A stretch of 64,000 nucleotides of DNA from a virus (lineage: Duplodnaviria; Caudoviricetes), in the IMG/VR virus record IMGVR_UViG_3300027782_000030, positions 136,571-200,570 of that record; one strand, given 5' to 3'. This document shows, one piece after another, positions 1 to 17,346 of this stretch. Position 1 is the first letter of the stretch, and each line of letters opens with the position of its first letter. The position numbers were made by a program, and so were the translations under genes. The notes under the pieces are model-generated. The model saw only the letters and a program-made list of their open reading frames with translations. It was not told the DNA's origin and did not search any database.

Positions 1-1
1 G

Positions 2-562
2 TTTGAAGGGTTACCAAATTGGTTAGACTTTTTACCCGAAGAATTCAACAGCATCAAATTAAATGAAAATAAATTTCCAATAAAATTAAATATAACCCCT
101 GAAAGACCAAATCCGTTAATGGTAGAAGTTCAGGATCTTAAATATTTTGATGATAGTTATTTTAGTATAGTTACCGAAACAACTTTTTATAATAATGACC
201 ATCCGCGTATTGTTAGATATGGGACCTTAGATAATATTTTTATTACTGAAAAGACTTTTAAATGTTTTCCTGCAATGCACCCGTTCATTGTATTTGCTTA
301 TCCTAATTTATTATCTGAATTAAGAAAACTTGGGTATAAAACGTTTGCACCCTTTATAGATGAATCATATGATACTATTATCAATGATGATGATAGATTT
401 GAAGCAATATGGAAAGAAATAACTAGATTATTACATAAAACACCTGAAGAATGGATTCAATGGCAATCTGGCATCAAAGAAATCGTTGAATTTAATAAAA
501 ATCATTTTTATTCAAATACAAATTATTCTTCTACCCCTATTGACGATATTTTTGGAGACTAA
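2..562 (+). CDS. C-terminal part of a GT-B/GT10-like glycosyltransferase-family protein (5' end lies outside the window)
   Basis: The frame is open from base 2 into the 119..562 ORF. Motif IVTETTF..FITEKTFK..HPFIV..LGYKTF..IDESYD is shared with 4336..6057 and 15220..16371. Confidence 0.6.
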   Translation, partial: FEGLPNWLDFLPEEFNSIKLNENKFPIKLNITPERPNPLMVEVQDLKYFDDSYFSIVTETTFYNNDHPRIVRYGTLDNIFITEKTFKCFPAMHPFIVFAYPNLLSELRKLGYKTFAPFIDESYDTIINDDDRFEAIWKEITRLLHKTPEEWIQWQSGIKEIVEFNKNHFYSNTNYSSTPIDDIFGD

Positions 563-565
563 TAA

Positions 566-2815
566 TTGGATTTTAACCTAACGTCATTAGCAGTAGATAA
601 GTTAGTTCCTAAAGAACGGCCTACAGAAGATATTGCCGATGCCCGACATCGTAATATGATGGAGGCTATAGCGCCCTATGCAAAGAAAACAGAACAAAAA
701 AATCTAACACCTGTATATGTTAATTATAAAACCCGCAATACTAAATTAGTATTGGTATTATGTCCTGAATGGAGTCCGTATATGCCGCCCTTTAGTCTAG
801 CTAGACTAAGTGGTATAGCAAAAAGTGCAGGATATGAAACTACTATTATGGATTTGAATGTTAGAGCCTATAACGAATATCGTAACGATTGGCAACCTAA
901 TAAAAAACTCCCATTCAGACTATGGGATCCTAGTAGCAGTTGGCACTGGCTAGGCGAGACTTATATGAATGATATTCATCCCGTATTAGAGCCTGTACTT
1001 AGTAAAGCAATAGATGATATAGTTGAACTAAATCCTGAAGTAGTTGGCTTTAGTATATATTATATTAGTGAAGAGCCAACTAAGTGGATGTGTAAAGAAC
1101 TCAAACGTAGACTGCCCAATGTAAAAATTGCAGTAGGTGGACCCAACGTACACAAGAGTTGGTTTAAAGTAGAACCATATTATGATTATGCAGTTGTGGG
1201 TGAAGGTGAGGCAAACTTATTAGTATTACTTGAAGAAGTAGAAAACGGTATCAACCACAGTGAACCTAAGATTCTAGATCAACCCGAAGAGCAGCGTATC
1301 AACATAAATGGCTTGCCTATGCCAGACTATGAGTCTATAGATTTTAGTCAATATGAATTGCCTAACGGAGTAAACACAGAAATTAGTAGGGGCTGTACAG
1401 CAAAATGTACTTTTTGCGAAGAGACACATTTTTGGCGATATCGTCAGCGTCAATCTGTTGATTTGATTACGGAAATCGAATGGCTATACTATAATAAGGG
1501 TACAGATGTTGTTTGGTTCATTGATAGTTTAGTCAATGGCAACTTAAAAGAGTTGAGGGCTTTTGTCAAAGGAGTCGCCGCTAAAGGTCTTAAGATTAAG
1601 TGGACAGGATATGCCCGCTGTGACGGCCGAATGGATCTAGAATACATGAAAGATTTAGCTGCCGGTGGTTGTATCATGTTTAACTATGGGATAGAATCCG
1701 GTAGTCAAAAAGTATTGGACGATATGGCTAAAGGCGTCACGATTGCAGAGATGGAACAAAACTTCATCGATGGTAAAAAGGTGGGTATATGGGCTGCTAC
1801 AAACTGGATTGTAGGATTCCCCACTGAAAATTTTCAAGACTATGCCGATAGCATGACACTACTATGGCGTATGCGTAATAATAATATTAATAACGCCGGC
1901 TTGGGAGTAGGTTATGGCTTGGGCCCAGAAACTATAGTAGGTCAAAACCCGCATAAATTTAATATTAGTTGGCACAAGTATCAAGGACATTGGATTACAA
2001 AAGACTTGACAATGGGTGGAACTCATGTAATGACTAGAGTAAAAACTTTTCACATGTTTGCCGATTTTATACAGGGGTGTAGTGAAGTCCCGATTAGTTA
2101 TCCAGTGAGACACGGTTTAGCAAGAGAACATTATAAAATAGAATTGAATGATCCTAAGTGTATCAAAGAAATTGAATATGAAAAATTTGATTATAATATT
2201 ATTAAAGTAGATATTAATCCATTTGCTAATACATTAGTAAATGAAATGTGGCCATTCTTTCGAATGCTTTGGAAAACTAGAGGTGGATATAAAGCTGTAG
2301 TGAAATTTCATCCTGACATTGATTTAAAAGAGTTTGGCAGTCAGTTTGGACCCGGCATGTATTATGCTACTTATAAGTTTGATATCACGGATGACGGCAA
2401 GTGGGATGCCGATTTTGATATTATTTTTAATCAAGTAGATAATATATTTGACGATAGAGAACGTCCGCCTCTAGGTAGAAAAGGTCCTTTTTACGCACAA
2501 GACTATAGTAGAATTCAAGCTAATACAGCCAAACGTGCCCGTAAATTAGCAAAGCCAACATGGAGCGATGAAGAAGGTAGAGATGGACAAGATTTTACAG
2601 ACTTGTTAAATGAAGAACAAATGTTAAATGAAACTATTGACTTCTCATTTAAGCTACATTGGGTTGAGTCAGGTGATTGGGGCAACTATGCCGACTATGA
2701 AGTTAAAGTTTCTAATACTACTATCGTTGTGATTCCTGAAAAGAAAGCAATGTCGGCTACAGAATTTGCTACAATTGACGTAACATCTATTAAAAAACGT
2801 GAACCCAATACTTGA
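566..2815 (+). CDS. B12-binding radical SAM enzyme (class B methyltransferase-like)
   Basis: CxxxCxxC motif (SRGCTAKCTFC), an N-terminal cobalamin-binding-like domain (PPFSLARLS, VAVGGP, VVGEGE) and GIESGSQ. Confidence 0.9.
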   Translation: MDFNLTSLAVDKLVPKERPTEDIADARHRNMMEAIAPYAKKTEQKNLTPVYVNYKTRNTKLVLVLCPEWSPYMPPFSLARLSGIAKSAGYETTIMDLNVRAYNEYRNDWQPNKKLPFRLWDPSSSWHWLGETYMNDIHPVLEPVLSKAIDDIVELNPEVVGFSIYYISEEPTKWMCKELKRRLPNVKIAVGGPNVHKSWFKVEPYYDYAVVGEGEANLLVLLEEVENGINHSEPKILDQPEEQRININGLPMPDYESIDFSQYELPNGVNTEISRGCTAKCTFCEETHFWRYRQRQSVDLITEIEWLYYNKGTDVVWFIDSLVNGNLKELRAFVKGVAAKGLKIKWTGYARCDGRMDLEYMKDLAAGGCIMFNYGIESGSQKVLDDMAKGVTIAEMEQNFIDGKKVGIWAATNWIVGFPTENFQDYADSMTLLWRMRNNNINNAGLGVGYGLGPETIVGQNPHKFNISWHKYQGHWITKDLTMGGTHVMTRVKTFHMFADFIQGCSEVPISYPVRHGLAREHYKIELNDPKCIKEIEYEKFDYNIIKVDINPFANTLVNEMWPFFRMLWKTRGGYKAVVKFHPDIDLKEFGSQFGPGMYYATYKFDITDDGKWDADFDIIFNQVDNIFDDRERPPLGRKGPFYAQDYSRIQANTAKRARKLAKPTWSDEEGRDGQDFTDLLNEEQMLNETIDFSFKLHWVESGDWGNYADYEVKVSNTTIVVIPEKKAMSATEFATIDVTSIKKREPNT

Positions 2816-3383
2816 GTTTGAAACGGTTATAAAAGAATATTATAACAGCCCATATGCGGTTACAACTGATTGTTGTACCCACGCTATTGAACTATGTATT
2901 AGGTTATTAAAGCCAACTGAGGTATCATGTCCAAAACACACCTACCTAAGTGTTCCAATGACATTTGAAAAATTAAATCTAGATTGGAGATTTAAAAATT
3001 TTAAATGGAATGATTATTATTATATAACTAATAATATTATTGATGCGGCAGTATATTGGAAGCCCGATGGATATATCCCTAATACATATATGTGCTTGTC
3101 ATTTCAATTTAAAAAGCATTTAAATGTGGGTAGAGGTGGCATGATATTAACCGACGATTATGAATCTTATAAAAAATTAAAAAAGATGAGTTATGATGGT
3201 AGGCTTCCCGATATTGCATGGGCTGAACAAGACGTAGACACATTGGGTTATCATTATTATATGACACCTGAAACTGCTGAGTTGGGTTTAGATAGATTTC
3301 ACGAAGTAAAGGACATTGAACCTAGACAATGGTCTTGGAAAGACTATCCCGACTTAACAACAATGAGTGTATTCAAATGCTAA
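2799..3383 (+). CDS. Compact DegT/DnrJ/EryC1/StrS-family PLP aminotransferase
   Basis: AVTTDCCTHAIEL, IIDAA, and the PLP-lysine motif SFQFKKHL..GRGG, then GYHYYMTPE; only 194 aa. Confidence 0.8.
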   Translation: MNPILEFETVIKEYYNSPYAVTTDCCTHAIELCIRLLKPTEVSCPKHTYLSVPMTFEKLNLDWRFKNFKWNDYYYITNNIIDAAVYWKPDGYIPNTYMCLSFQFKKHLNVGRGGMILTDDYESYKKLKKMSYDGRLPDIAWAEQDVDTLGYHYYMTPETAELGLDRFHEVKDIEPRQWSWKDYPDLTTMSVFKC

Positions 3384-4339
3384 GTAAAAACGAGTGGGAT
3401 CCACTTAAAACCGTGATTGTTGGTATAGCAGATAATGCTACTAGACCAATTATATCTACAAGCGTTAGGACTGTTAACTATGCTGATGTAAAAGATGTGA
3501 GTACGATTGAATGTGGTCCATATCCTGTACAAGTCATAGAAGAAGCGAATCAGGATTTAGAAACACTAAGTGATTTTCTTAAGAAAGAAAACATTAAGGT
3601 ATTACGCCCTGAAGCAAATCATCCTAGGTATTATAACTATTGCCCAAGAGATACGGTATTAATACATGATGAATTAGTATTGGCTACACCAACTGCACTA
3701 AGTGAACGACGCCATGAATGGACTAGTTCTGCGAAGCATTTAAATATAGTTACAGTAGCACCTATACCAAATGATGATATAATTTATAATACTGAATGTA
3801 TAGGTAATCCTGATATTTTAGCATTAAATGAAATAGATCCTTGTTTTGATGCTGCTAATATTATTAGAGCAAATGAAGACCTTTATTATCTAGTTAGTAA
3901 TACTGGTAATAAAAAAGGTGCAGAATACTTAAGGTCATTGGGCAAAACTGTACATACTATTGAAAACGTATATAGTTATATTCATATTGATAGTACTATT
4001 GCATTTTTGCGTGAGGGTTTAATGTTGTTAAACCCAAAAAGAATTACGAATGTCAAAGAACAATTACCCAAATCATTGCATAATTGGGATATAATATGGG
4101 CTACTGAGCCAATAGATATTGGACATTACCCCGGTATATGCAATGCTAGTGTTTGGATAAATGTAAATTTGTTATCTATCAATCCTAACTTAGTAGTTCT
4201 AGAAGAACACCAACACAATTTACGAATAGAATTAGAAAAATACGGTATTGAATCAGCAATGTTACCAATGCGTCATGCTAGAACATTAGGTGGTTGTTTT
4301 CACTGTGTGACATTAGATTTAGTTAGAGATGATAAATGA
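3377..4339 (+). CDS. Amidinotransferase (glycine/inosamine-phosphate amidinotransferase family)
   Basis: NEWDPLKTVIVG, YCPRD, HIDST and GGCFHCVTLDL (Asp-His-Cys triad). Likely ATG is 3377, inside the listed 3329 ORF. Confidence 0.9.
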   Translation: MLSKNEWDPLKTVIVGIADNATRPIISTSVRTVNYADVKDVSTIECGPYPVQVIEEANQDLETLSDFLKKENIKVLRPEANHPRYYNYCPRDTVLIHDELVLATPTALSERRHEWTSSAKHLNIVTVAPIPNDDIIYNTECIGNPDILALNEIDPCFDAANIIRANEDLYYLVSNTGNKKGAEYLRSLGKTVHTIENVYSYIHIDSTIAFLREGLMLLNPKRITNVKEQLPKSLHNWDIIWATEPIDIGHYPGICNASVWINVNLLSINPNLVVLEEHQHNLRIELEKYGIESAMLPMRHARTLGGCFHCVTLDLVRDDK

Positions 4340-6057
4340 GTAAATGGCGTCGAGGACATGTTGGTAGATTTTGGTATACTGAAGAGGTTAAAAATCTTAA
4401 TTATACTAAACAACCTATAACTCAAGATGAAGTTGACCAATGGGTATCTAAAGGTTATGATTACGTAAAGAGCTTTACGGGCAGCATGTATGATAATAAA
4501 AACCCAATGCCTGAATTTATTAATAGACTTAAAGATATCTTTTACAACTATAAAAATCTTACGTTTACTTTTTATAAAATGAGTACATTGGAAATTATGC
4601 CTGAGCATTCTGATCACTATAATACATATATGAAATTATATGGGGCAGATTACAAAAATGTACACCGCATCTTATTAATGTTAGAAGATTGGAAACCCGG
4701 GCATTACTTGGAAATAGATGGCACTGGTATTATTAATTGGGTAGCAGGTGATTACTTTATTTGGGAAAATGATTGCAAACATGCTGCTGCTAATATAGGT
4801 GTAGAAGATAGATATACTTTACAGATTACGGCTGAAATACTTAGCGACAACTCAACTGACTATAAACTACATTGGTATAATATTCCTGATAGAGAATCAA
4901 AAACCGAATCATCTCAATACTATATGAATAGGGTACTAAACGGAGTAACTGATAATATAAGAAATGAACCATTGTATATTTACATGCTTAATCAACAAAT
5001 TGTTGAACTAGAAACAATAATACATGATCAAAGTACAGTACAGTATTTAAATGAAAAGGGTATTACATTTTATCTAACAGAACCATTATGCGGCTATACA
5101 AGATTACCTAGGAAACATACACTATCAATTTATTCAGAATTTAAAGGTGATGAAGATTCTTCTGCTTTACGGGCAGACGAGTTAGATAGCATTAAAGAAT
5201 ATGTTATCAGAAATAAATTAACTAATGTTAATGTTTATACATGTGATTATGACGCTAAAACATATTATCCTTACTATAAATCTTTTATGAATATAGAAAC
5301 AGATGATTTGTTTATTAGAACCATACCACAAAAAACAGTATTCCATACCAATGTCAAAGCTGCTTTTAATAAAAAATTTATTTGTTTAAATTGGAGATTT
5401 ACTCCTCATAGGCAATTATTAGCCGCATACTTGTCTCAAAAATCTAGCACTATTAGTTGGTATTTTAGGGGAGATTTGCCTGTTGTAGGGCACTATAATT
5501 GGATTAGTATTTTTTCACTTAGAGACCCTAAATATTTTAATACTTTAATAGATGGCATCACATATCTAAATGCTAACGCACCTCTGAGTGTTGACTTACC
5601 TGATGTAGAATCTATCTCTTTATATGATACTGCTCATGGCGAATTTATTCCTAATAGTCAAATACTGAATAATAGTTCCAATGAGATAATAGAAAATGCT
5701 TATTTGAATGTGTTTTGTGATATAGTTACTGAGTCTAGATTCGCTCAGCCAACTGGTAACTTTAGCGAAAAGGTATTTCACCCTATATGGTATAAAAAGC
5801 CTTTCGTATTGGCAGCGCCTCCTCATACACTAAAATATTTAAAAGAAGAAGGGTATAAAACCTTCAATGAATTTTGGGATGAAAGTTATGATGACTGTGA
5901 AAATCATGAAGAAAGATTAATGAAAATATTTGATGTAATAGATTTCATTGATAGTAAATCTATAGACGAATTGCGTGAAATGTATGAGCAAATGAAGCCA
6001 ATACTAAAACATAATTATGATTTAATAAAGCAAAAACTGCCCACAGTAGAAAAGTAA
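4336..6057 (+). CDS. Fusion of an N-terminal 2OG-Fe(II) oxygenase and a C-terminal GT10-like domain
   Basis: PEHSDHY...HAAANIG..RYTLQIT jelly-roll HxD..H motif; C-terminal IVTESRF..FSEKVF..KPFVL..GYKTF..WDESYD. Confidence 0.7.
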   Translation: MSKWRRGHVGRFWYTEEVKNLNYTKQPITQDEVDQWVSKGYDYVKSFTGSMYDNKNPMPEFINRLKDIFYNYKNLTFTFYKMSTLEIMPEHSDHYNTYMKLYGADYKNVHRILLMLEDWKPGHYLEIDGTGIINWVAGDYFIWENDCKHAAANIGVEDRYTLQITAEILSDNSTDYKLHWYNIPDRESKTESSQYYMNRVLNGVTDNIRNEPLYIYMLNQQIVELETIIHDQSTVQYLNEKGITFYLTEPLCGYTRLPRKHTLSIYSEFKGDEDSSALRADELDSIKEYVIRNKLTNVNVYTCDYDAKTYYPYYKSFMNIETDDLFIRTIPQKTVFHTNVKAAFNKKFICLNWRFTPHRQLLAAYLSQKSSTISWYFRGDLPVVGHYNWISIFSLRDPKYFNTLIDGITYLNANAPLSVDLPDVESISLYDTAHGEFIPNSQILNNSSNEIIENAYLNVFCDIVTESRFAQPTGNFSEKVFHPIWYKKPFVLAAPPHTLKYLKEEGYKTFNEFWDESYDDCENHEERLMKIFDVIDFIDSKSIDELREMYEQMKPILKHNYDLIKQKLPTVEK

Positions 6058-6078
6058 ATACTTATAAGGAGCACATTT

Positions 6079-6177
6079 ATGTTTATATTTAAATGGATTA
6101 AGAATATTATCCGAGAATACAAATACCGTAAAAGAATTAAAGAATTACGCAAACGGGATCCTTTCATATACAAATGA
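6079..6177 (+). CDS. 32-aa basic peptide (MFIFKWIKNIIREYKYRKRIKELRKRDPFIYK)
   Basis: Read by hand and absent from the ORF track. AAGGAG RBS, GTAAATA at 6054, and its TGA overlaps the ATG of 6174. Confidence 0.65.
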   Translation: MFIFKWIKNIIREYKYRKRIKELRKRDPFIYK

Positions 6178-7655
6178 ACTATGTAGGCATATCAGCAGGG
6201 TTTCATGACGCTGCAATCAGTGTAATAGACAATGCAGGCAACCTATTATTTGCTGGGCATAGTGAACGTTATAGTAAGAAAAAACACGATAAAGACTTAT
6301 GTGAAGAATTATTAGCCGACGCATTAAGTTACTGTAATTCAGAATCATTAGAGTATCACTACTACGAAAGACCTTGGTTGAAAGCACTTAGACAGGTGCG
6401 TAGTGGTGAGGGTTTTGTTTGGCCAAGTTGGAAAAACTTATTAGGTCCCATCTATAATCAAATGGGTAAACCAAAGATACATGTACATGGTCATCATCTA
6501 TGCCATGCAGCAGCAGGATTTCAAACCAGTCCTTATAGTGACGCCACAGTTGTAATAATTGACGCTATAGGTGAGTTTGACACTATGACGATTTGGGATG
6601 CTAGATATGACCTTATAACTGGCAAGGCTACCTATGAGAAACTATGGAGTATGCAATATCCAAACAGTGTTGGATTATTTTATTCAGCAATGACTGAGCG
6701 AGTCGGGTTGCGTCCACTAGATGAAGAATATATTCTTATGGGCATGGCTGCATATGGTCATCCTCATCATGTTGATGATATGTTTGATGCGTTAATAGAT
6801 GATGATGACATATTGACCTTTAAGCAGAATTTACATGTTGGGGTAAGTAAAGAATTTTTGAAAAACGCCAAAGATACAGACATTGCCAGCAGTAGTCAAA
6901 ATATAGTAGAATATATGATTACTCTAGTTGTTAGTAAGGCCAAAAGTCTAGGTAGAAGTAGAAATCTAGTCTACGGTGGTGGGGTGGCATTGAATTGTTT
7001 AGCAAATAGATTATTAGGAAATATATATGAAAATATTTGGATTATGCCGAACCCTGGTGATGCAGGTAATAGCCTTGGTGCAGCATGTCTTGGCTATGGC
7101 ACTAAACTTAATTGGAGTAATGCTTTTCTTGGGCATGATATTACTGGGGATTATCCTGTTCATCGGTTACTTGATGTTCTACTTACTGATCGGATGGTTG
7201 GTGTTGCGTCCGGTAGGGCAGAATTCGGACCGCGGGCCTTAGGTAATCGTAGTCTGTTGGCAGATCCTCGCGGAGATGATATCAAAGACAGAGTAAATGA
7301 GATTAAGCGTAGACAAAAGTTTAGACCATTTGCTCCTATTATTCTTGAGGAATATGTGCATGATTATTTTGACATGCCAAGGTCTTGGAAAAATAGTAGA
7401 TACATGCAAGTAATTGCTAACTGTAAATTTCCTGATCGGTTTCCTGCTATCGCTCATGCCGACAAAACTAGCAGAGTACAAACTGTACCAAAAGATGGCT
7501 CGGGTATTAGAGAGTTATTAGAGAAATGGTATGTAATAACCGAATGTCCTATGTTGTTGAATACTAGTCTAAACATTCGTGGCGAGCCAATGGTCAATGA
7601 CAGGGCCGATGCTGACAGATTTGAAAAACTGTATGGGGTTAAAGTTCTGTCATAA
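6174..7655 (+). CDS. Carbamoyltransferase (NodU/CmcH/TobZ family)
   Basis: GFHDAA, HHLCHAA, IDAIGE, GGVALNC, EFGPRALGNRS and LNTSLN motifs. Confidence 0.95.
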   Translation: MNYVGISAGFHDAAISVIDNAGNLLFAGHSERYSKKKHDKDLCEELLADALSYCNSESLEYHYYERPWLKALRQVRSGEGFVWPSWKNLLGPIYNQMGKPKIHVHGHHLCHAAAGFQTSPYSDATVVIIDAIGEFDTMTIWDARYDLITGKATYEKLWSMQYPNSVGLFYSAMTERVGLRPLDEEYILMGMAAYGHPHHVDDMFDALIDDDDILTFKQNLHVGVSKEFLKNAKDTDIASSSQNIVEYMITLVVSKAKSLGRSRNLVYGGGVALNCLANRLLGNIYENIWIMPNPGDAGNSLGAACLGYGTKLNWSNAFLGHDITGDYPVHRLLDVLLTDRMVGVASGRAEFGPRALGNRSLLADPRGDDIKDRVNEIKRRQKFRPFAPIILEEYVHDYFDMPRSWKNSRYMQVIANCKFPDRFPAIAHADKTSRVQTVPKDGSGIRELLEKWYVITECPMLLNTSLNIRGEPMVNDRADADRFEKLYGVKVLS

Positions 7656-7666
7656 GTAACTACATC

Positions 7667-10600
7667 ATGAGAGATGTATTTTATTACGGTAAAAAACCCA
7701 ACGTTCACCCAAAAGAAAAATTTGCGACTTCAATAGAAGATGCCAGGAGTCAATGTACCACTGAACATTTTTGGATAATCAATGAATACTGTGATTATCG
7801 CAATCTAGATTGGGACTTTGATTTTGAATTCTTACCCGATGAAGATGTATGGGCAGAAGACCATAACAATGTATGGCCCAGCCAACATCAAAAAGACAGT
7901 GGCACTTGGCTATGTCCAAAGAAAAACAGTGATATAATTATCTATCGTGCTGATGTTGACCCTGTTATTCGTAAGAATATAAAGAATGACAATTGGGTAA
8001 TATTATATGAAATTGATGAAATTAACTTTGATTTTAGTTGGCATCCTGATCCAACTGATCCTTCCTATACTTATGTATGGGGTAACCAATGGCACTCTGG
8101 TAAGATTATGCCTACGGTTAAATATTCCGTACTTGGTTCGTTAGAAGTAAAATATATTGAAAATAATATTGCGATATTAGCACAATTGCCTGAAAACTTT
8201 GATATTTTTGAAGAAGTTGAGAATTTTGATTTTAGTTGGCATCCTAATCCAACTAGTCCTCCTTACATATATGTTTGGGGTAATCAATGGAATATCCCTC
8301 AGGACAAAATATCTATTCAATATAAAGTTGATGGTGCGACCGAACATAATTATATGGCCGAACGTGCGATTCGTAAACCATGTACAGGTAATTGGATAAT
8401 ACCTGATAATGTTGATACAATTGGGTTTGACTTTAGTTGGGAACCTAGCCCAGCGGATCAACCTTATATTTACCAATTTGGCACTCAGTGGCAAAAGACA
8501 GGTGGTCCACAATATTTAACACCAGGCGTACATAAAAATAGTGACATTAAGTATATTGATTTGCAAAAAGTAAAAATATTGCCTAATAAAGATAACTTTA
8601 TTATCTTAGACAATATTATTGTAGATGATTTTGATTATAGTTGGCATTCTGATGAAACAGAAGAACCATACATATACGTATTTGGTAATAATTTATATGC
8701 GGCTGAAATTATGCCAACTATCCAGTACGTACCTAAAAACGCAGTTAGATTAACATCAGGTAAACCAATTGAACAAATAAAATATGTCAATGACTTAGTT
8801 GCTAAATTAGGAGAGAATAGAAATAATTGGGTTATTCATCAGCCAATAGATGAAATTAAATTTGATTTTAGTTGGGTGCCTAATCCTAAAGATCCCCCTT
8901 ACATATATGTTTGGGGTAACAAATATATTTCAAACATATATAAACCAACGGTTGAATATATAGTTGAAGGTGCAACTGAAATAAAATACATGGATGACAG
9001 TGTTGCTGTATTACCCGAGCTTGATCGATGGTATATACCAAATAATATTGATGATACTGGTTTTGATTACACATGGAGACCTGATCCATTAGAACCTGTA
9101 TTAATTTGGCAATTTGGCACTCAGTGGCAGAAGACAGGTGGACCTAGATATACCATGCCTAGCGCTATTGAAATCAAATATATTGACAGTCAAAAAGTAA
9201 AAGCACTGCCTAACAAAAATTGGACTATACCTAAAAATATTGATGTATCTGAATTTGATTTTAGTTGGCACCCAGATGACACTTCACCTTCTTACATATA
9301 TAGATTTCCTACACAGTGGGCAATGAGTGGTGGTCCAATTTACACTGTAGTTGGAGCAACAGAAGTAAAGTATATAGATATCTTTAGGGCTAAAGCGCTA
9401 CCTAATACAGACAATTGGGAATTCGATTCTAACAATATTGATTCGTCTATCTTTGATTTTAGTTGGCACCCATATGCTGAAGATGAGCCTTTCATATATC
9501 AATTTGGTACTCAATGGCAAAAGACAGGTGGTCCTAGATATTTAACTCCAGGAGTTCATAAAAATAGTCCTGTAAAATATATTGATACACGAATTATAAA
9601 AGCAAAAAGATTGCCGAACAAAAATAATTTTGTTATTTTAGATGACAATGTTATATCTGATTTTGATTATAGTTGGCATCATGATGATACTGAAGAACTT
9701 TTTATATATGTATTTGGTAACAATTTATATTCTGCTGAAATTATGCCAACTATCCAGTACGTACCTAAAAACGCAGTTAGATTAACATCAGGTAAACCAA
9801 TTGAACAAATAAAATATGTTAATGACTTAGTTGCCAAGTTAGGAGAAAATAGAAATAATTGGGTAATATATCAACCAATAGATGAATCTAAATTTGATTT
9901 TAGCTGGGTCCCCAATCCCAAAGACCCAGCTTACATATACTGTTGGGGTAACAAATTTATTTCCAATGTATATAAACCAACCATTGAATATATAGTTGAA
10001 GGTGCAACTGAAATCAAATACATGGATGACAATGTTGTAGTAGTACCTGAAAGCGATCGGTGGTATATACCAAGTAATATTGATGATACTGGCTTTGACT
10101 ATACATGGAGACCTAATCCATTAGAACCTGATTTAATTTGGCAGTTTGGTACTCAATGGCAAAAAACCGGCGGCCCAAGATATATTATGCCCGGTGCTAT
10201 TGAAGTCAAATATATTGACAGTCAAAAAGTAAAAGCACTTTCTAATAAAAATTGGACTATACCTGAAAATATAGATGTGTCTGAATTTGATTTTAGTTGG
10301 CATCCAGATGATACAAGTCCACCGTATATTTATAGATTCCCAACTCAATGGGCAATAAGCGGCGGACCTAATTATATAGTTGAAGGTGCTACTGAAATAA
10401 AATATATTGATAAGCTTAAGGCTAAAGCACTTCCTTGTAAAGATTATTGGGATTTTAATTCTGCTATAGTTGATGAAAATAGTTTTGATTTTAGTTGGCA
10501 TCCATATGCAGAAGACGAGCCTTTTATATATCAATTTGGAACACAATGGCAGAAAACAGGTGGTCCTAGATATTTAACTCCAGGTGTTCATAAAAACAGT

Positions 10601-13600
10601 CCCATAAAATATATCGATACACGAATTATTAAATCAAAAAGATTGCCAAACAAAAATAATTTTATTATCATTGATAATAACATAATTGACAGTTTTGATT
10701 GGTCATGGCACCCTGATGAAACAGAAGAGCCATTTGTTTATATATTTGGTAATAATCAGTACTCGGCTGAGATAATGCCAACTATAAAATATGTTGTAGA
10801 AGGTGCTGCTGAAATAAAATATGTTAACGATATAATTGCTACTTTAGGTGAAAACAAAACCTATTGGGAAATGCCTGAAGGTGTGAATATTATCAACTTT
10901 GATTTTAGTTGGGTACCTAACCCTAAAGACCCTGCTTACATATATGAATTTGGTACTCAATGGAATGATAGAGGAGGACCAAAATATGTTCCTCCTAATA
11001 AAGGGCTTAGATTAGCATCAGGTAAACTTATCGGTCAATATAAGTATGTCAGTGATCAAATTGCTACAGTAGGGGAAAATAAAACAAATTGGATCATACC
11101 TAATAATATTGACATTACAGGTTTTGATTTTAGTTGGGTCCCACATCCCGATGATCCGCCATATGTATATGAATTTGGTACCCAATGGCAGCAGACAGGA
11201 GGGCCCAAGTATATAGTTGAGAATGCTACTGAAGTTAAATATGTAGATATATTTAAAGTTAGAATGTTACCCAATAGTGATAATTGGGAAGTACCTGATA
11301 ATATAGATAGCACTAAATTTGATTTTAGCTGGCATCCAAATTCAACTGAAGAACCCTACACATATAAATTTGGAACTCAGTGGCAAAAGACTGGAGGTCC
11401 TAGTTATTTAACACCTGGTATTCATAAAAACAGTCCGATAAAATATATTGATAATCAAGTACTTAGTAGTATTAGATTACCCAACAAAGACAATTTTACT
11501 ATATTAGATAATATTATTGTTGCTGATTTTGATTACAGTTGGCACCCTGACGAAACTGAAGAGCCGTATGTGTACGTATTTGGTAATAATTATTATCCAG
11601 CTGAGATAATGCCAACTATTCAATATGTACCCGAAAATGTAGTCAGAGCAGCATCAGGGATACCAATTGAGCCAATTAAATATGTTAATAATGTGGTTGC
11701 AACATTAGGACAAAATAAAACTAATTGGATAGTACATCAGCCGATAGATGAAAGTAAGTTTGATTTCAGTTGGGTACCTAATCCCAAAGATCCTCCTTAT
11801 ATCTATGTTTGGGGTAACAAGTATATTTCAAACATATATAAACCTACATTGGAATATGTTCCTTCTGAAATTCCTAGACTAGCAACAGGTAAACCAATTG
11901 GTCAAATTAAGTATATGGATGATGACGTTGAAGTTCTTCCCGAATGGGATAATTGGATTATACCTGAAGATATAGATAAAAATAGTTTTGATTTTACATG
12001 GAGACCTGATCCACGTGAGCCTGATTTTATATATCAATTTGGTACACAACATCAAAAAACAGGTGGTCCTCAGTATATTACCTTAGGTATCCCTAGACTA
12101 GCAACAGGAAAACCAATTGGCGGTCAAGTTAAATATGTTGATGGTATAAAGGCTAAAAAGCTACCTAATAAAACTAATTGGACTAATCCTAGCAAAGCGG
12201 ATGTTAGTACATTTGATTTCAGTTGGCACCCGGACGATACGTCACCTCCTTACATATATCAATTTGGTACATTATTAGATAGAGAAGATGGACCTAGGTA
12301 TATGACTCCAAAGACTAATGGAGTGATTGTTTATTTGGAAAAAGTTGAAAAAGAAATTGAGGAAGTTATAGAAGAATTGGTACGAGGTGATTTCCCTAAA
12401 TATTATATTTCTACTACCCTTGAAGATTTGGTAAAAGAACACCCAAATGAAATGTTTTGGGCATTAAATCCTAATTTAGATTATAGTGATTTTGATTTTG
12501 ATTGGAGACCTAATATTGACCGATCACAGTATGAATCAGAATATGTTCATGTGTTTGGATCTAGTGAAAGTGAAAAAACACAGACATATCTAGTTAATAG
12601 TATAATGTGGGAGAAAGGTTTTAGAGAATTAAATTGGGTCGTTGACAAAAAACTTGATGATGTAACATTATTTAAAATGTTCAAAAAATCCGATATGTTC
12701 TTTGTAGATAGAAGTAACCTAGAATCTCACGCAAGATTTGAACAACTTAAAGTTAAATTTCCTAATATACAAAAGACAAGATACCTAAATAGTTGGGTTG
12801 ATACTATTAATCGTTGTATAAATCGTGCAAGTAGTAATTTATGTTGGATATTAAACAGTGAATTAGATTATAGTAATTTTGATTTTGATTATTATCCTAA
12901 TCCTTGGCAAATGAAAATGGTCCATGTATTTGGAACACAATGGAGTCATTGGGGGTCAACATTCATGGTCAACCGAGAATCATTTGCTGAAGATACTAAA
13001 TGGATTAAAATTATAGAGCATTTAAGTAATCTTAACTTTGTAAAAGATAGAATTGCTATAGCTGATAACAATGTATATGACATATATGTTGTAGACCACG
13101 GTAATAAAGAAACAGCCACTGTGGTTGATCAATTGACTAATAAAGCGTGTGGTAAATCAGTTAATACTATTAAATATACCGAAAATTATTTACTTACATT
13201 TAGAAATCTATTAAGACAATTACCTGAAAAGAAAGAACATTATATTTGGTTATGTAGTAGCATATGTGACTATAGTAATTTTGACTTTAGTTATATATGC
13301 GATCCTTTTGCCCGTGAGCAATTGCATGTATTTCCTAGTGATACTCAAAAATTAGGTGATACCTTTTTAGTTAATATTAATAAGTTTCGTGAATTAATTA
13401 ATAATATGACTTTATTAAATGAATATAATAAAATCAATTATAATCAACATCAAAAAGTTAAAAGATTAGAACCGCCCACTATTATTACTAATTACGATTC
13501 TCATGTATTAAGTGTAATGGAAGACTTTGATTTCCCATATGCTGTGTTTTTATCTGAAGATAATAAAGATTTAAAAGTCAATGACGAAGAGCCGATTAGT

Positions 13601-14416
13601 TTATGGAGCAGTGACACTAAAAACATTGTTGTTACTAGCACAGGTGGAACAAGAATAGTAGTTCCCAAAGAGGCTAAAAATTATGTAGATACGCAATTGT
13701 ATGATTACCCCTACATTAAAAAGGCTAGTAGACTTGTGCCTAGTAATGTTTTAGACATTGTGTTTTTAAGTAATGGTGAGCCCAATGCAGATGAAAACTA
13801 TGAAAACTTGTTAAAACTAACTCGTGGGTTACCAAATAAAGTTACTAGAATAGAAGGCATAAATGGTAGAGTAGCCGCTTATCATAAAACAGCAGAGGCT
13901 AGTAATACTAACTGGTATTTTGTTGTTTGGGGTAAACTATTTGTTAATCCAAAGTTTGATTGGTCGTGGCAACCTGATAGATTACAAATACCTAAGAACT
14001 ATATATTTCATGCAAAAAATCCATTGAATGGATTAATATATGGCCATCAAGCAGTTGTTGCGTATAATAAAAAATTAGCATTATCTACTAAAGGTAATCA
14101 ATTAGACTTTACTATGGAAAGTCCACATCAGGTAGTACCTATATTATCAGGGACCGCTAATTATAATAGTGATGCATGGACTACATGGAGAACTGCATTT
14201 AGAGAGTGTATTAAACTTAGATATGATAATACTGAAGAAAGCAAAAATAGATTAAAAATTTGGTTAACTAAAGCCGATGGAAATTTTGCAGACTTTAGTA
14301 TTCAAGGCGCTAACGATGCTATAGAGTATTTTGATAGTGTGGATGGTGAGTATTCTAAACTCAAACTAAGCTACGAATGGGCTTGGCTGAGAGAAAAGTT
14401 CCAAAAATTTGACTAA
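7667..14416 (+). CDS. 2249-aa tandem-repeat protein with C-terminal glycosyltransferase-like domains
   Basis: 21 core units containing FD[FYW][ST]W..P..PYIY.FG.QW, followed by GT-A-like domains (DIVFLSNGEPNADENY..NGRVAAYH..WYFVVWGKL). ATAAGTA late-promoter-like site at 7652. Confidence 0.75.
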   Translation: MRDVFYYGKKPNVHPKEKFATSIEDARSQCTTEHFWIINEYCDYRNLDWDFDFEFLPDEDVWAEDHNNVWPSQHQKDSGTWLCPKKNSDIIIYRADVDPVIRKNIKNDNWVILYEIDEINFDFSWHPDPTDPSYTYVWGNQWHSGKIMPTVKYSVLGSLEVKYIENNIAILAQLPENFDIFEEVENFDFSWHPNPTSPPYIYVWGNQWNIPQDKISIQYKVDGATEHNYMAERAIRKPCTGNWIIPDNVDTIGFDFSWEPSPADQPYIYQFGTQWQKTGGPQYLTPGVHKNSDIKYIDLQKVKILPNKDNFIILDNIIVDDFDYSWHSDETEEPYIYVFGNNLYAAEIMPTIQYVPKNAVRLTSGKPIEQIKYVNDLVAKLGENRNNWVIHQPIDEIKFDFSWVPNPKDPPYIYVWGNKYISNIYKPTVEYIVEGATEIKYMDDSVAVLPELDRWYIPNNIDDTGFDYTWRPDPLEPVLIWQFGTQWQKTGGPRYTMPSAIEIKYIDSQKVKALPNKNWTIPKNIDVSEFDFSWHPDDTSPSYIYRFPTQWAMSGGPIYTVVGATEVKYIDIFRAKALPNTDNWEFDSNNIDSSIFDFSWHPYAEDEPFIYQFGTQWQKTGGPRYLTPGVHKNSPVKYIDTRIIKAKRLPNKNNFVILDDNVISDFDYSWHHDDTEELFIYVFGNNLYSAEIMPTIQYVPKNAVRLTSGKPIEQIKYVNDLVAKLGENRNNWVIYQPIDESKFDFSWVPNPKDPAYIYCWGNKFISNVYKPTIEYIVEGATEIKYMDDNVVVVPESDRWYIPSNIDDTGFDYTWRPNPLEPDLIWQFGTQWQKTGGPRYIMPGAIEVKYIDSQKVKALSNKNWTIPENIDVSEFDFSWHPDDTSPPYIYRFPTQWAISGGPNYIVEGATEIKYIDKLKAKALPCKDYWDFNSAIVDENSFDFSWHPYAEDEPFIYQFGTQWQKTGGPRYLTPGVHKNSPIKYIDTRIIKSKRLPNKNNFIIIDNNIIDSFDWSWHPDETEEPFVYIFGNNQYSAEIMPTIKYVVEGAAEIKYVNDIIATLGENKTYWEMPEGVNIINFDFSWVPNPKDPAYIYEFGTQWNDRGGPKYVPPNKGLRLASGKLIGQYKYVSDQIATVGENKTNWIIPNNIDITGFDFSWVPHPDDPPYVYEFGTQWQQTGGPKYIVENATEVKYVDIFKVRMLPNSDNWEVPDNIDSTKFDFSWHPNSTEEPYTYKFGTQWQKTGGPSYLTPGIHKNSPIKYIDNQVLSSIRLPNKDNFTILDNIIVADFDYSWHPDETEEPYVYVFGNNYYPAEIMPTIQYVPENVVRAASGIPIEPIKYVNNVVATLGQNKTNWIVHQPIDESKFDFSWVPNPKDPPYIYVWGNKYISNIYKPTLEYVPSEIPRLATGKPIGQIKYMDDDVEVLPEWDNWIIPEDIDKNSFDFTWRPDPREPDFIYQFGTQHQKTGGPQYITLGIPRLATGKPIGGQVKYVDGIKAKKLPNKTNWTNPSKADVSTFDFSWHPDDTSPPYIYQFGTLLDREDGPRYMTPKTNGVIVYLEKVEKEIEEVIEELVRGDFPKYYISTTLEDLVKEHPNEMFWALNPNLDYSDFDFDWRPNIDRSQYESEYVHVFGSSESEKTQTYLVNSIMWEKGFRELNWVVDKKLDDVTLFKMFKKSDMFFVDRSNLESHARFEQLKVKFPNIQKTRYLNSWVDTINRCINRASSNLCWILNSELDYSNFDFDYYPNPWQMKMVHVFGTQWSHWGSTFMVNRESFAEDTKWIKIIEHLSNLNFVKDRIAIADNNVYDIYVVDHGNKETATVVDQLTNKACGKSVNTIKYTENYLLTFRNLLRQLPEKKEHYIWLCSSICDYSNFDFSYICDPFAREQLHVFPSDTQKLGDTFLVNINKFRELINNMTLLNEYNKINYNQHQKVKRLEPPTIITNYDSHVLSVMEDFDFPYAVFLSEDNKDLKVNDEEPISLWSSDTKNIVVTSTGGTRIVVPKEAKNYVDTQLYDYPYIKKASRLVPSNVLDIVFLSNGEPNADENYENLLKLTRGLPNKVTRIEGINGRVAAYHKTAEASNTNWYFVVWGKLFVNPKFDWSWQPDRLQIPKNYIFHAKNPLNGLIYGHQAVVAYNKKLALSTKGNQLDFTMESPHQVVPILSGTANYNSDAWTTWRTAFRECIKLRYDNTEESKNRLKIWLTKADGNFADFSIQGANDAIEYFDSVDGEYSKLKLSYEWAWLREKFQKFD

Positions 14417-14437
14417 ATATATAGAAGGTGATATACT
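14409..14437 (+). promoter_or_regulatory. Sigma70-type promoter
   Basis: TTGACT-17 nt-TATACT with an extended -10 TG, upstream of 14468. Confidence 0.7.
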
Positions 14438-14467
14438 GTAGTCATCGGTAACACAACGGAGGTTGAT

Positions 14468-14722
14468 ATGAAACGAGTTCTTGGTCTTGTCGTAGCGTTA
14501 GGTCTTGGTGCAAGTGCTACTGGTTGCGCCAGTCATCAGGTTGCCCCCGCAATTGTAGGGGCAGTAGTTGGAGTAGCGGTTGCAGATGCGGCTTACCGTC
14601 GTCCTGTAGTGGTTCAGGGTCCTGTTGTTATTCAGCAACGTCAGTATCCTACAAATTATAATCGTCAGCCGGTTTATGTGTGTGACTACTATACTATCCC
14701 TAACCGTTGTTCTTGGCAATAA
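14468..14722 (+). CDS. Small lipoprotein with a glycine-zipper-like segment
   Basis: Basic N-terminus, hydrophobic core and lipobox-like ATGC; AIVGAVVGVAVA; PVVVQGPVVIQQ tail; GGAGG RBS. Confidence 0.7.
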   Translation: MKRVLGLVVALGLGASATGCASHQVAPAIVGAVVGVAVADAAYRRPVVVQGPVVIQQRQYPTNYNRQPVYVCDYYTIPNRCSWQ

Positions 14723-14736
14723 TAGGAGATCGTAAA

Positions 14737-15057
14737 ATGAAAACAAAAATTCTAGCTGCCGTGCTAGCCATGGCTCCATTAAGTGGCATGGCCCAACACC
14801 ATCAAGGGTTCAGACATTTTGACCATCATCAACACTACAGAGGTGGATTGGGATGGGTAGCACCTGCTGTAATCGGTGGTGCTGTAGTATATGGACTAAC
14901 CCGCCCTGCACCAGTAATCGTTCAACAACCGCCGGTTTATATTCAACAACCTATTATAGTAGACTCATCACAGGTTGTAATCATTGATGGAGTATCTTAC
15001 ATTAAACAGGCCATGATTATTAATGGAGTAACACAAGAGGTATTGGTACGCCAATAA
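14737..15057 (+). CDS. Secreted or membrane His/Pro/Val/Gln-rich protein, similar in build to 14468
   Basis: Signal peptide MKTKILAAVLAMAPLSGMA; GWVAPAVIGGAVVYGLTRP; PVIVQQPPVYIQQP; AGGAG RBS before ATG 14737. Confidence 0.7.
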   Translation: MKTKILAAVLAMAPLSGMAQHHQGFRHFDHHQHYRGGLGWVAPAVIGGAVVYGLTRPAPVIVQQPPVYIQQPIIVDSSQVVIIDGVSYIKQAMIINGVTQEVLVRQ

Positions 15058-15063
15058 TAAACA

Positions 15064-15213
15064 ATGTTTAAATTTAAATTATGGGTTAGGATTAATCCCT
15101 ATCAAACTGCTCATACTGTAGTTTGGGCCAGCAACGCACTGGAGGCCAAACAATTAGGTGAGACTCAGTATGGTGTAGGCAATGTGCTTAACTATACGCA
15201 AATAGATGAATAA
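15064..15213 (+). CDS. 49-aa hypothetical protein (MFKFKLWVRINPYQTAHTVVWASNALEAKQLGETQYGVGNVLNYTQIDE)
   Basis: Read by hand; fills the gap exactly between 15057 and 15220. Confidence 0.6.
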   Translation: MFKFKLWVRINPYQTAHTVVWASNALEAKQLGETQYGVGNVLNYTQIDE

Positions 15214-15219
15214 CCTATA

Positions 15220-16371
15220 ATGAATAATTTTATAGTTTATAACCCATCATCTTTGGATGGGACAGTATACAATATATTTTTTAATATTTTTGGTAGATAT
15301 ACAGATATCGTAGAAGATGTTAAACTGTTTAGTGGTATTTCAGTCTTAACATTAAGAGAAGATTTATTGTTAACAAAAAATCCACTAATGTTTAATTATT
15401 ATGAAATTTACATGTACAGAAAATCTAAAGGGTTACCTACAAAAATTATCATTGATTGGTCATTAGAGGGTCAATGTCATAATTCAAGTTTATCAACTTT
15501 ATTCAAGGAAAACGAACTTAATATTGATAAAGATATATTATTTGTACATAATGATTCTTCTAATAGAATTTGGGTTCCGTTTAATATTGGACAACAGTTA
15601 ACTATTGATTACCATGCATTAGATGCATATAAAAGGTGTATTATTACCTCTAGCAATTTGACTGACAGAACCTTAGTAAAAGACAGAAAAAATGGATTAA
15701 ATTTATTAATAGGTAAATTAAAAACAAAACATTCTAGATTTTTGGCAGCATATTATTTTTATAAATATGATTTACTTGATAGTGCTGTATTAGGTTTGCA
15801 TGTACTACCAGAAGATATTGTCACAAGGATGAAACTACATCCTGCATATTATGATATGAACTTTTATAATAAAATTGTACCATTATTAGGACCAGCGGAT
15901 TCAGTTTCTAAACTACACGATACGAATGAAGGGTGTACAGCAGAAGATGGCGGGTGGCCATTTGATCCAAACATATTTAAAAATTCTAGTATAAGCTATG
16001 TTTGTGAAACCTATGATATTGACAAAGGAATTTTTCCATACTTAGTGACAGAAAAATTTTATAGGTCTATTATTAATAAACATCCGTTTGTAGTGCAAGC
16101 CGGTTCAGGTCAATTAAACACTGTTAAATCTTTGGGGTTTGAAACCTTTTCATCTATCATTGATGAAAGTTATAATGATTATGATGTTCTTGATTATTCA
16201 CATGTTGAAAAAACTGTATTAGCCGCAAAGGATTTTTTATCAAAACTATCTAATAATGCTGATAAAATACAAGAAATTGTAGACTATAATTATAATCGTT
16301 GGCTATCAAGAAGTAAGGATGAATATGATAAGACTACTGATTTTTTTATCAGATTTATAAATAATCAGTAA
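15220..16371 (+). CDS. GT10-like glycosyltransferase-family paralog
   Basis: YVCETY..LVTEKFYR..KHPFVV..LGFETFSSIIDESYND, the same motif as 2..562 and 4336..6057. Confidence 0.6.
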   Translation: MNNFIVYNPSSLDGTVYNIFFNIFGRYTDIVEDVKLFSGISVLTLREDLLLTKNPLMFNYYEIYMYRKSKGLPTKIIIDWSLEGQCHNSSLSTLFKENELNIDKDILFVHNDSSNRIWVPFNIGQQLTIDYHALDAYKRCIITSSNLTDRTLVKDRKNGLNLLIGKLKTKHSRFLAAYYFYKYDLLDSAVLGLHVLPEDIVTRMKLHPAYYDMNFYNKIVPLLGPADSVSKLHDTNEGCTAEDGGWPFDPNIFKNSSISYVCETYDIDKGIFPYLVTEKFYRSIINKHPFVVQAGSGQLNTVKSLGFETFSSIIDESYNDYDVLDYSHVEKTVLAAKDFLSKLSNNADKIQEIVDYNYNRWLSRSKDEYDKTTDFFIRFINNQ

Positions 16372-16379
16372 ATAAAAGT

Positions 16380-16690: not shown

Positions 16691-16691
16691 G

Positions 16692-16719
16692 TAATAGGCC
16701 CGCAAGGGCCTATTATTTT
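16692..16719 (+). terminator. Rho-independent terminator after the tmRNA
   Basis: TAATAGGCCC-GCAA-GGGCCTATTA followed by TTTT. Confidence 0.85.
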
Positions 16720-16746
16720 GTTGTTTTTTCGCAACAAACCCAAAAT

Positions 16747-16775
16747 TTGACATTAATTCGGCATAAGCGTATACT
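16747..16775 (+). promoter_or_regulatory. Early sigma70 promoter (cassette family)
   Basis: TTGACATTAATT, 17-nt spacer, TATACT; upstream AACCCAAAAT is also present at 36448. Confidence 0.85.
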
Positions 16776-16805
16776 ATATCTATAGTGAGAAACAAGGAGA
16801 GCGAA

Positions 16806-17312: not shown

Positions 17313-17346
17313 CTTTTTATCGTAGTTTTTTCAACAGGAGTAAGAA

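Follow-up and report, generated by a model that had tools for sequence, protein, structure and literature searches.

What would a phage make with a run of tightly packed genes for a B12-binding radical S-adenosylmethionine (SAM) enzyme, an aminotransferase homologue, an amidinotransferase, an oxygenase and a carbamoyltransferase? These five genes lie between positions 566 and 7655 of the stretch analysed here (the window: 64,000 nt, positions 136,571 to 200,570 of IMG/VR virus record IMGVR_UViG_3300027782_000030). The large terminase of this contig has about 49% identity to its counterparts in PA5oct-type jumbo phages, and near-identical DNA occurs in at least 13 runs of freshwater metagenomes from several studies; the source is therefore taken to be an uncultivated freshwater jumbo-type myophage. 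The operon to which the genes belong most likely equips a sugar, within a glycan that the phage builds, with first an amino and then a guanidino group, and is probably expressed late, a reading that is held with moderate confidence. Each chemical step, and the target, is read from the gene identities, catalytic residues, synteny, domain folds and a promoter motif.

The five open reading frames (ORFs) reported in the initial annotation are all present, tightly packed and with their catalytic residues kept, and its family assignments stand: a StrB1-like amidinotransferase, a TobZ/NodU-like carbamoyltransferase, a class B radical SAM enzyme and a DegT-type enzyme. They are the 3' part of one long operon within a phage-encoded glycan island of about 35 kb, and this operon extends past both ends of 566–7655. 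It spans about 18 kb on the plus strand, in the order o380, o269, a UDP-sugar dehydrogenase (UGD) fused to a GT-B-like glycosyltransferase domain, B12 radical SAM enzyme, DegT-type enzyme, amidinotransferase, a 2-oxoglutarate (2OG)-Fe(II) oxygenase also fused to a GT-B-like domain, a microprotein, carbamoyltransferase, and a giant protein (Table 1). The B12 radical SAM gene is preceded by a spacer of 3 nt and overlaps the DegT-type gene by 17 nt, which overlaps the amidinotransferase gene by 7 nt when the latter starts at ATG 3377; the amidinotransferase and oxygenase genes share an ATGA overlap, and a spacer of 11 nt separates the carbamoyltransferase gene from that of the giant protein.

The predicted amidinotransferase matches StrB1 (PDB 1BWD) over its full length (query 4–317, E 9e-54), with weaker PDB matches to HsvA, AGAT and SxtG (entries 5WPI, 1JDW and 6U1R) and no match in a Pfam search. 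Its catalytic Cys-His-Asp motifs, CPRD, FDAAN, HxD and GGxFHCxT (HCxT), align with those of StrB1 and are invariant in 51 homologues; 5621 homologues were found. An alternative start at ATG 3329 was rejected because the homologues begin at the stretch MLSKNEWDPL, which corresponds to ATG 3377.

The gene that overlaps it on the 5' side encodes a pyridoxal phosphate (PLP)-enzyme homologue of half the usual size, referred to here as mini-DegT. The DegT-type family named in the initial annotation is correct, but the full-size enzyme is not, there being no sign of the two-domain architecture of about 360–400 aa that characterizes the DegT/DnrJ/EryC1/StrS family: about 55 internal residues and the entire C-terminal small domain are absent. 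The match to PF01041 (57 bits) covers only profile positions 165–240 of 360, plus a short N-terminal piece, and the protein aligns in two pieces to 4ZWV/4XAU, where Lys106 (SFQFKKH) aligns with the 4ZWV lysine. Asp82 (pyridine nitrogen), Lys106 (Schiff base), RGG and GYHYYM are all invariant in 46 homologues. A truncated pseudogene can be rejected, since thousands of proteins share the short length: of a family of at least 8000, the best 120 are all 194–207 aa. Such a family raises the question of how small a fold-type-I PLP enzyme can be.

Table 1. Features of the window and of the operon at its 5' end (window coordinates).
Feature	Position	Strand	Basis and remarks
Whole stretch, last 64 kb of one linear IMG/VR contig of 200,570 bp	1..64000		GC 35.9%; CheckV ~58% complete
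C-terminal GT-B-like domain of 790-aa UGD fusion	2..562	+	Gene start 1810 nt before the window, genome 134760
B12-binding (class B) radical SAM enzyme, 749 aa	566..2815	+	Pfam; TTG start
Mini-DegT, 194-aa PLP-enzyme homologue of sugar aminotransferases	2799..3383	+	DegT_DnrJ_EryC1 PF01041
Predicted StrB1-like L-arginine:amine amidinotransferase, 320 aa from ATG 3377	3377..4339	+	PDB homology; pentein fold
2OG-Fe(II) oxygenase (aa 1–170) fused to GT-B-like glycosyltransferase domain (aa ~195–567)	4336..6057	+	AlphaFold2 and fold search
Micro-ORF, 32 aa, MFIFKWIKNIIREYKYRKRIKELRKRDPFIYK	6079..6177	+	AAGGAG Shine-Dalgarno site 7 nt upstream; stop overlaps carbamoyltransferase start (ATGA)
NodU/CmcH/TobZ-type carbamoyltransferase, 493 aa	6174..7655	+	Pfam
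Giant protein, 2249 aa, conserved downstream neighbour	7667..14416	+	Repeat map; AlphaFold2 model of C-terminus

A megablast of the operon against GenBank phages gave no match. In IMG/VR, however, a scan with the amidinotransferase recovered 66 loci, 49 of them non-redundant, from which partner counts were taken using only those loci with room for each gene. The mini-DegT is present at 45 of 47 non-redundant loci and the oxygenase domain at 47 of 49, followed by the giant (35/42), the GT-B domain (35/49), UGD (27/41), the B12 radical SAM enzyme (27/44) and the carbamoyltransferase (21/43). Many loci keep the order UGD, B12 radical SAM, mini-DegT, amidinotransferase, oxygenase, carbamoyltransferase, giant, at 45–90% protein identity. 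Co-occurrence in related phages, which the initial annotation had named as the check on its proposal, is therefore clear from the mini-DegT and oxygenase counts and from the shared gene order. Synechococcus phage S-SCSM2R has a homologous cluster of amidinotransferase, radical SAM and glycosyltransferase genes, and Campylobacter phage CP220 has a more distant one.

Relatives of the amidinotransferase in Bdellovibrio, Pseudobdellovibrionaceae and other bacteria have 36–48% identity. At four Bdellovibrio-type loci (L200, L201, L202, and L210) its neighbours are a twitch-domain radical SAM enzyme, UGD, a short-chain dehydrogenase/reductase (SDR), mini-DegT and a GT-B-like protein. In the metagenome-assembled genome of a Bdellovibrio sp. 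that carries L210 (2546–9029, +), overlapping genes encode twitch radical SAM, UGD, SDR, mini-DegT (219 aa), GT-B-like protein and amidinotransferase; the flanks hold two GT2 genes, two further radical SAM genes and one YdjC-like gene. The L202 locus is from a cultured isolate, Bdellovibrio sp. HCB2-146. The combination of UGD, SDR and a DegT-type enzyme is the logic of known UDP-amino-sugar pathways (Arn, Wbp), and the presence of the amidinotransferase beside these three in bacteria argues for amidination of a new sugar amine. Indeed, the order of amino and then guanidino transfer suggested in the initial annotation is supported by this bacterial operon of UGD, SDR, mini-DegT, GT-B-like and amidinotransferase genes beside GT2, as well as by the glycosyltransferase fusions in the phage.

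The first of these fusions is the 790-aa UGD protein. A dehydrogenase of the UDP-glucose/GDP-mannose type forms its N-terminal half (Pfam UDPG_MGDP_dh_N and central domain, in the full protein; NCBIfam nucleotide sugar dehydrogenase, E 6e-38), and its C-terminal part resembles the C-domain of the oxygenase protein (BLASTP E 3e-11). With both UGD and the oxygenase fused to GT-B-like domains, the context is one of sugars. In the pathway proposed, the UGD domain would make a UDP-sugar, probably a UDP-uronic acid, which would then be oxidised to a keto-sugar, the candidates for this step being the 2OG oxygenase, a radical SAM enzyme and an SDR. Mini-DegT would transaminate the keto group to an amine, and the StrB1-like enzyme would move the amidino group of arginine onto this amine, giving a guanidino sugar. 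The GT-B-like domains, of which the island has four paralogues, and the GT-A-like proteins, including the giant, would build the sugar into a glycan, most likely one that decorates a virion component.

In this pathway the B12 radical SAM enzyme may carry out a further tailoring or oxidation step. It is above the Pfam cut-offs for B12-binding (PF02310, 42 bits) and Radical_SAM (PF04055, 56 bits), has its CxxxCxxC (SRGCxAKCxFC) and GEGE motifs invariant in 25 homologues, and carries a conserved C-terminal extension of about 300 aa. Its PDB matches are weak, and it falls in none of the characterised subfamilies searched (GenK/GenD1, PhpK, BchE, RiPP C-methyltransferases; RiPP, ribosomally synthesised and post-translationally modified peptide), the best NCBIfam matches scoring 84–90 bits against cut-offs of 282–750. 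The C-methylation that had been suggested for this enzyme is thus a family analogy only, every NCBIfam match being far under its cut-off.

The protein listed initially as an oxygenase has two domains: a 2OG oxygenase is fused to a GT-B-like domain (aa ~195–567). The two halves are separate genes in many relatives. The AlphaFold2 model of the fusion has a pLDDT of 92, and the oxygenase domain within it is a prolyl-hydroxylase-like double-stranded beta-helix, matching PiuC, the Dictyostelium PHD and the P. putida P4H with VIA Z-scores of 13.0–13.4 (root-mean-square deviation 3.1–3.4 over 150–155 aligned residues), top matches that are tied within about 2 Z with many small-molecule oxygenases. 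The iron triad H91-x-D93...H149 and R159, the predicted basic ligand of 2OG, are present, as they are in about 10 of 16 homologues. A PDB sequence search with the fusion found no match, and Asp_Arg_Hydrox (PF05118) is sub-threshold (17.8 bits, cut-off 22.6), with AspH as one of the many tied fold matches (Z 11.2). For the GT-B-like domain, which was modelled only within the whole fusion, Foldseek gives LpxB, Agl5 and RfaK over residues ~195–567 at a probability of 0.94–1.0 but with low TM-scores; a protein-atlas lead to GT10 scores only 0.77, and the family has 6912 matches in the representative library. LH3 and mimivirus L230 hydroxylate, and then glycosylate, a protein. The oxygenase–glycosyltransferase fusion recalls these enzymes and may keep a protein acceptor in play.

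Downstream of the carbamoyltransferase, the giant protein has about 21 tandem repeats of about 67 aa each, with the motif FDFSWHP...P[YF]IY.FG. These are repeats at the protein level, Tandem Repeats Finder having found no DNA-level repeats in the gene. Its last 610 aa (AlphaFold2, pLDDT 88) form three tandem GT-A-like nucleotide-sugar-transferase domains, for which Foldseek and VIA give the K4 chondroitin polymerase (K4CP), LH3, mimivirus R699, PmHS2 and PBCV-1 A64R. By eye, one full GT-A-like unit can also be read at the N-terminus, the ~67-aa repeats being truncated units. The motif P[FY][IVL]Y occurs 12 times in the giant, where 0.2 copies would be expected, and resembles the PFIY tail of the microprotein.

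Where the glycan would be placed is suggested by the neighbourhood. The island 5' of the operon contains two tail-fibre-like genes, GT-A-like genes and six radical SAM genes, and between the radical SAM array and the plus-strand operon there is a minus-strand operon with an SDR epimerase/dehydratase and an NDP-hexose-type C-methyltransferase (PF08421/PF08484). The T4-late-type motif ATAAATA lies at most 45 nt upstream of an ORF start at 34 of its 78 sites in the contig, a strong enrichment. It stands before terL, structural genes and a tail-fibre-like gene, before the SDR operon of the minus strand, and before o380, with which the plus-strand operon begins. Example sites are at 26393, 27990 and 60322 of the window, with 132778(-)/132797(+) of the genome marking the two divergent operons of the island. 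The motif behaves like a T4-type late promoter, which would mean that the operon is probably co-transcribed late; scans for sigma-70 promoters and terminators were at chance level. The closeness to tail-fibre-like genes, the late-type motif in common and the precedents in other viruses point to a virion glycan as the target, with a host-surface glycan or a free product as a possible alternative.

DNA had also been named as a target in the initial annotation. PLP enzymes, radical SAM enzymes and glycosyltransferases are known from base hypermodification in phages, and this general precedent, with the distant link to CP220, is all that speaks for a tailored sugar or group attached to the bases of phage DNA. 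The thymidylate-synthase homologue in the window (22176–23030, +; PF00303, 351 bits) scores like a normal ThyA and is probably not a base hydroxymethylase, and the available 200 kb of this contig, about 58% complete, yielded no TGT/DpdA or ThyX. There is no base-hydroxymethylase or DNA-glycosyltransferase family match among the island proteins scanned, and the same core operon adjoins GT2 genes in bacterial chromosomes. DNA as the target therefore finds no support, and is very improbable.

It might instead be that the product is a diffusible small molecule, an aminoglycoside- or aminocyclitol-like secondary metabolite made through a BtrN-like twitch radical SAM dehydrogenase, an StsC-like transaminase, StrB1-like amidination and TobZ-like carbamoylation. 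Among solved structures the amidinotransferase is indeed nearest to StrB1 of streptomycin biosynthesis, and the carbamoyltransferase to NovN, GdmN and TobZ, and the homologues in S-SCSM2R have been labelled "antibiotic synthesis genes", of unclear purpose (PMC12801897). The pairing of a DegT/StsC-family enzyme with a StrB1-like amidinotransferase does resemble the streptidine branch (StsC, then StrB1), in which a keto group becomes an amine and then a guanidine, and the twitch-domain radical SAM genes of the island resemble the BtrN-type dehydrogenases of 2-deoxystreptamine pathways. In the phage, however, the aminotransferase is the 194-aa mini form, no inositol-phosphate synthase, kinase or resistance gene is seen, and the setting is that of glycosyltransferase-rich phage and Bdellovibrio glycan loci, as opposed to an actinomycete antibiotic cluster. 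Among the island proteins scanned there is no cyclitol synthase, kinase, exporter or self-resistance gene, and a polymer or conjugate would better suit the glycosyltransferase-like domains, at least eight of them, the nearby tail-fibre-like genes and the late-type promoter, which leaves a diffusible compound improbable.

Several observations weigh against a guanidino sugar on a phage-built glycan. The C-terminal domain found in every characterised sugar aminotransferase is absent from mini-DegT, and its activity is therefore no more than a prediction. There are several candidates for the enzyme that forms the keto group, none of them singled out, and an SDR adjoins the amidinotransferase in only 2 of the 66 phage loci. 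The oxygenase domain is closest to protein prolyl hydroxylases, within tied Z-scores, and its iron ligands are lost in about 6 of 16 diverged homologues. The six radical SAM genes (twitch/SPASM) and the conserved microprotein would fit peptide chemistry equally well. The late timing is drawn from the ATAAATA motif only, and the contig is about 58% complete.

The microprotein is encoded in what had been left as an empty 'gap' of 116 nt between the oxygenase and carbamoyltransferase genes. This contains a 32-aa ORF with a Shine-Dalgarno site, translationally coupled to the carbamoyltransferase, and in related loci the C-terminus of the peptide, KRDPFIYK, is invariant. A search with a back-translated DNA pattern showed that KRDPFIYK is encoded in at least 120 viral IMG/VR stretches, 80 of which were fetched for the following statistics. 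In all 80 the motif is at the C-terminus or at most 2 residues from the end, most of the peptides being 33–51 aa; it is encoded by 66 distinct 24-mers using all six Arg codons, and the stop follows directly in 75. This variety of codons, with the fixed position of the stop, means that selection is on the peptide and not on the DNA. A tblastn search of 2.3 Gb with the 32-aa microprotein gave no match, the query being too weak to indicate absence.

At 49 of 73 loci the carbamoyltransferase gene is at most 400 nt downstream of the micro-ORF, and at others the distance is up to about 1.6 kb; this holds even at 31–50% enzyme identity, and the micro-ORF is present at 18 of the 21 amidinotransferase loci that have a carbamoyltransferase. 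In a separate phage lineage (L078, L088, and L116 of IMG/VR, and others) the pair has no sugar genes nearby: 32 loci have a gene for a Toprim primase immediately before the micro-ORF, and in 17 loci a DnaB-type helicase is encoded downstream of the carbamoyltransferase. A DUF6071 gene is sometimes found between the peptide and carbamoyltransferase genes in this lineage. The cultured jumbo Ralstonia phage RsoM2USA has an unannotated 36-aa ORF, MIQKLVNWLKSFFVKEKTEAEKIRDQIRKQDPFIYK, that ends in QDPFIYK (MG752970.1, ~125891–126001 (-), equivalent to L001:9026–9136 (+)). With a DUF6071 gene on either side, this ORF is one gene upstream of that for the carbamoyltransferase (gene 199); a radical SAM gene and a third DUF6071 gene are adjacent.

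The carbamoyltransferase itself is above the Pfam cut-offs for Carbam_trans_N (PF02543, 121 bits) and Carbam_trans_C (PF16861, 158 bits), with a Kae1-like N-domain and a YrdC-like C-domain. NovN, GdmN and TobZ match it with E-values of 1e-45 to 1e-33, and HHxxH, IDAIGExD, GGVALNC and FRPFAP are invariant in 22 homologues. With the microprotein it makes up a two-gene unit, separable from the rest of the operon, which may have a peptide rather than a sugar as its substrate. The carbamoylated sugar of the initial annotation is doubtful because the pair is self-contained and also sits away from sugar genes, between replication genes and in RsoM2USA. A predicted sugar substrate may still apply, since pelagiphages place the carbamoyltransferase beside UGD, DegT, radical SAM and methyltransferase genes; in cultured cyanophages and pelagiphages it occurs without the micro-ORF.

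That the pair alone serves to modify a peptide is a serious possibility, though it falls somewhat short of an even chance. More tentative is the suggestion that the microprotein is a ribosomal substrate of the NodU-type carbamoyltransferase of phages and, here, perhaps also of the adjacent prolyl-hydroxylase-like oxygenase. The micro-ORF does have one feature of a RiPP precursor, being a short ORF with a conserved core beside a putative modifying enzyme, and ribosomal peptides are known substrates of NodU-type enzymes, namely of CgnI in the crocagin pathway (PMC10070186) and of StdF, whose product is homocitrulline (PMC13174530). As in the crocagin (CgnA/CgnC/CgnD/CgnI) and Std (StdA/StdF) systems, a short precursor with a conserved C-terminal motif stands beside a NodU-type carbamoyltransferase and an Fe-dependent oxygenase (PMC10070186, PMC13174530). 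The phages differ in having no CgnB/E-type binding protein, YcaO or MNIO, in that their peptide is strongly basic and its modification only hypothesised, and in that the pair is in phage genomes, sometimes within a replication module.

Taken further, the whole operon could be one for RiPP-like peptide modification, with the 32-aa microprotein, and possibly the P[YF]IY repeats of the giant, as substrate. The oxygenase would hydroxylate a residue in the DPFIYK tail, and the carbamoyltransferase would carbamoylate that hydroxyl, or the terminal Lys or a Tyr; further decorations would come from the radical SAM enzymes, from the glycosyltransferases and from the amidinotransferase, which would turn Lys into homoarginine. 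The strong protein-level selection on KRDPFIYK speaks for this, as do the persistence of the pair with divergent carbamoyltransferases and between the primase and DnaB genes, the unannotated copy in RsoM2USA, the presence of the micro-ORF at most amidinotransferase loci with a carbamoyltransferase, the NodU-type precedents, the prolyl-hydroxylase folds of the oxygenase and the excess of P[FY][IVL]Y in the giant. The top NCBIfam match of the B12 radical SAM enzyme is, moreover, a RiPP C-methyltransferase, though far under its cut-off. However, the core of mini-DegT, amidinotransferase and oxygenase is present at many loci without carbamoyltransferase or micro-ORF, the bacterial core sits with UGD, SDR and GT2 and has no micro-ORF, and in the cultured cyanophages and pelagiphages the carbamoyltransferase manages without one. 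DegT, UGD, SDR and the PF08421/PF08484 methyltransferase are nucleotide-sugar families, and no RiPP recognition element (RRE), protease or leader-type architecture was identified, although no search was aimed at the RRE. Peptide modification by the operon as a whole is therefore rather unlikely.

If the microprotein is indeed a substrate, more than 100 uncultivated phages, and RsoM2USA, would encode a two-gene, RiPP-like unit for peptide carbamoylation, and the long-known carbamoyltransferase auxiliary metabolic gene of phages would modify a peptide, not a nucleotide or sugar. One role guessed for this gene in print is pyrimidine synthesis (PMC9146016); the pair, possibly a new one of peptide and enzyme, offers a concrete and testable hypothesis as to its substrate. 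RsoM2USA and the Bdellovibrio isolates make both the microprotein and the guanidino-sugar questions accessible to experiment.

For the guanidino sugar on a phage-built glycan, the nearest comparisons are the Ugd-ArnA-ArnB (L-Ara4N) and WbpA-WbpB-WbpE (diamino-uronic acid) pathways. Common to them and the present case is a single operon for a UDP-sugar 6-dehydrogenase, an SDR and a DegT-family enzyme, with glycosyltransfer as the next step, a likeness that is clearest in Bdellovibrio. They differ in that the amine is here followed by an amidinotransferase, where those pathways have a formyl or acetyl transferase, and most phage loci have the B12 radical SAM enzyme in place of the SDR. To our knowledge, guanidino sugars are not a described component of surface glycans of this type. 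Virus-encoded sugar-nucleotide tailoring, with glycosyltransferases near structural genes, is shared with the capsid glycans of PBCV-1 (A64R), the fibril glycans of mimivirus (L230, R699, R655) and mycobacteriophage virion glycosylation, and structure searches with the oxygenase and with the GT-A domains of the giant bring up, among others, A64R, R699, R655, LH3 and the mimivirus lysyl hydroxylase. In those viruses, however, the amidinotransferase, mini-DegT, B12 radical SAM enzyme and six twitch radical SAM genes have no counterpart, and for the phage operon a glycoprotein target is hypothetical.

Among phages, S-SCSM2R ORF305–309 comprise a 195-aa 'AHBA synthase' (a mini-DegT), radical SAM enzyme, glycosyltransferases, 2OG oxygenase and an amidinotransferase of 56% identity, and CP220 gp080–089 include four or five radical SAM genes, an amidinotransferase and two GT-A-like genes. 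Both clusters are shorter, without the B12 radical SAM enzyme, UGD fusion, giant and microprotein–carbamoyltransferase pair. Virus-encoded glycan synthesis is known, but we know of no characterisation of a conserved module centred on an amidinotransferase. This one, with its half-size PLP enzyme, StrB1-like amidinotransferase and oxygenase–glycosyltransferase fusion, is common to many freshwater and marine phages, a cyanophage, Campylobacter phages and Bdellovibrio. If the virion or cell surface does carry a guanidino sugar, this would be a new and strongly cationic building block of glycans, and would bear on adsorption and on immune or defence evasion.

Elsewhere in the island, Pfam and PHROGs gave no family for the giant protein, o316, o409, o380, o269, m234, GTa or GTb. 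SGNH-like motifs (FGCSFT / CGDSWM, GGxSN, DxHP) can be seen by eye in o269 (L006:5954–6763, +) and m234 (L006:1966–2670, -), a reading that rests on these by-eye motifs; BLASTP of o269 against the DUF6071 proteins of RsoM2USA was not significant. The six tandem radical SAM genes are upstream of the window (L004:4372–11729, genome 120942–128299). Four of them have an N-terminal SPASM/twitch domain in Pfam, two of these four being NCBIfam NF033640 (311–357 bits), and similar radical SAM arrays accompany the amidinotransferase in CP220 and at many IMG/VR loci.

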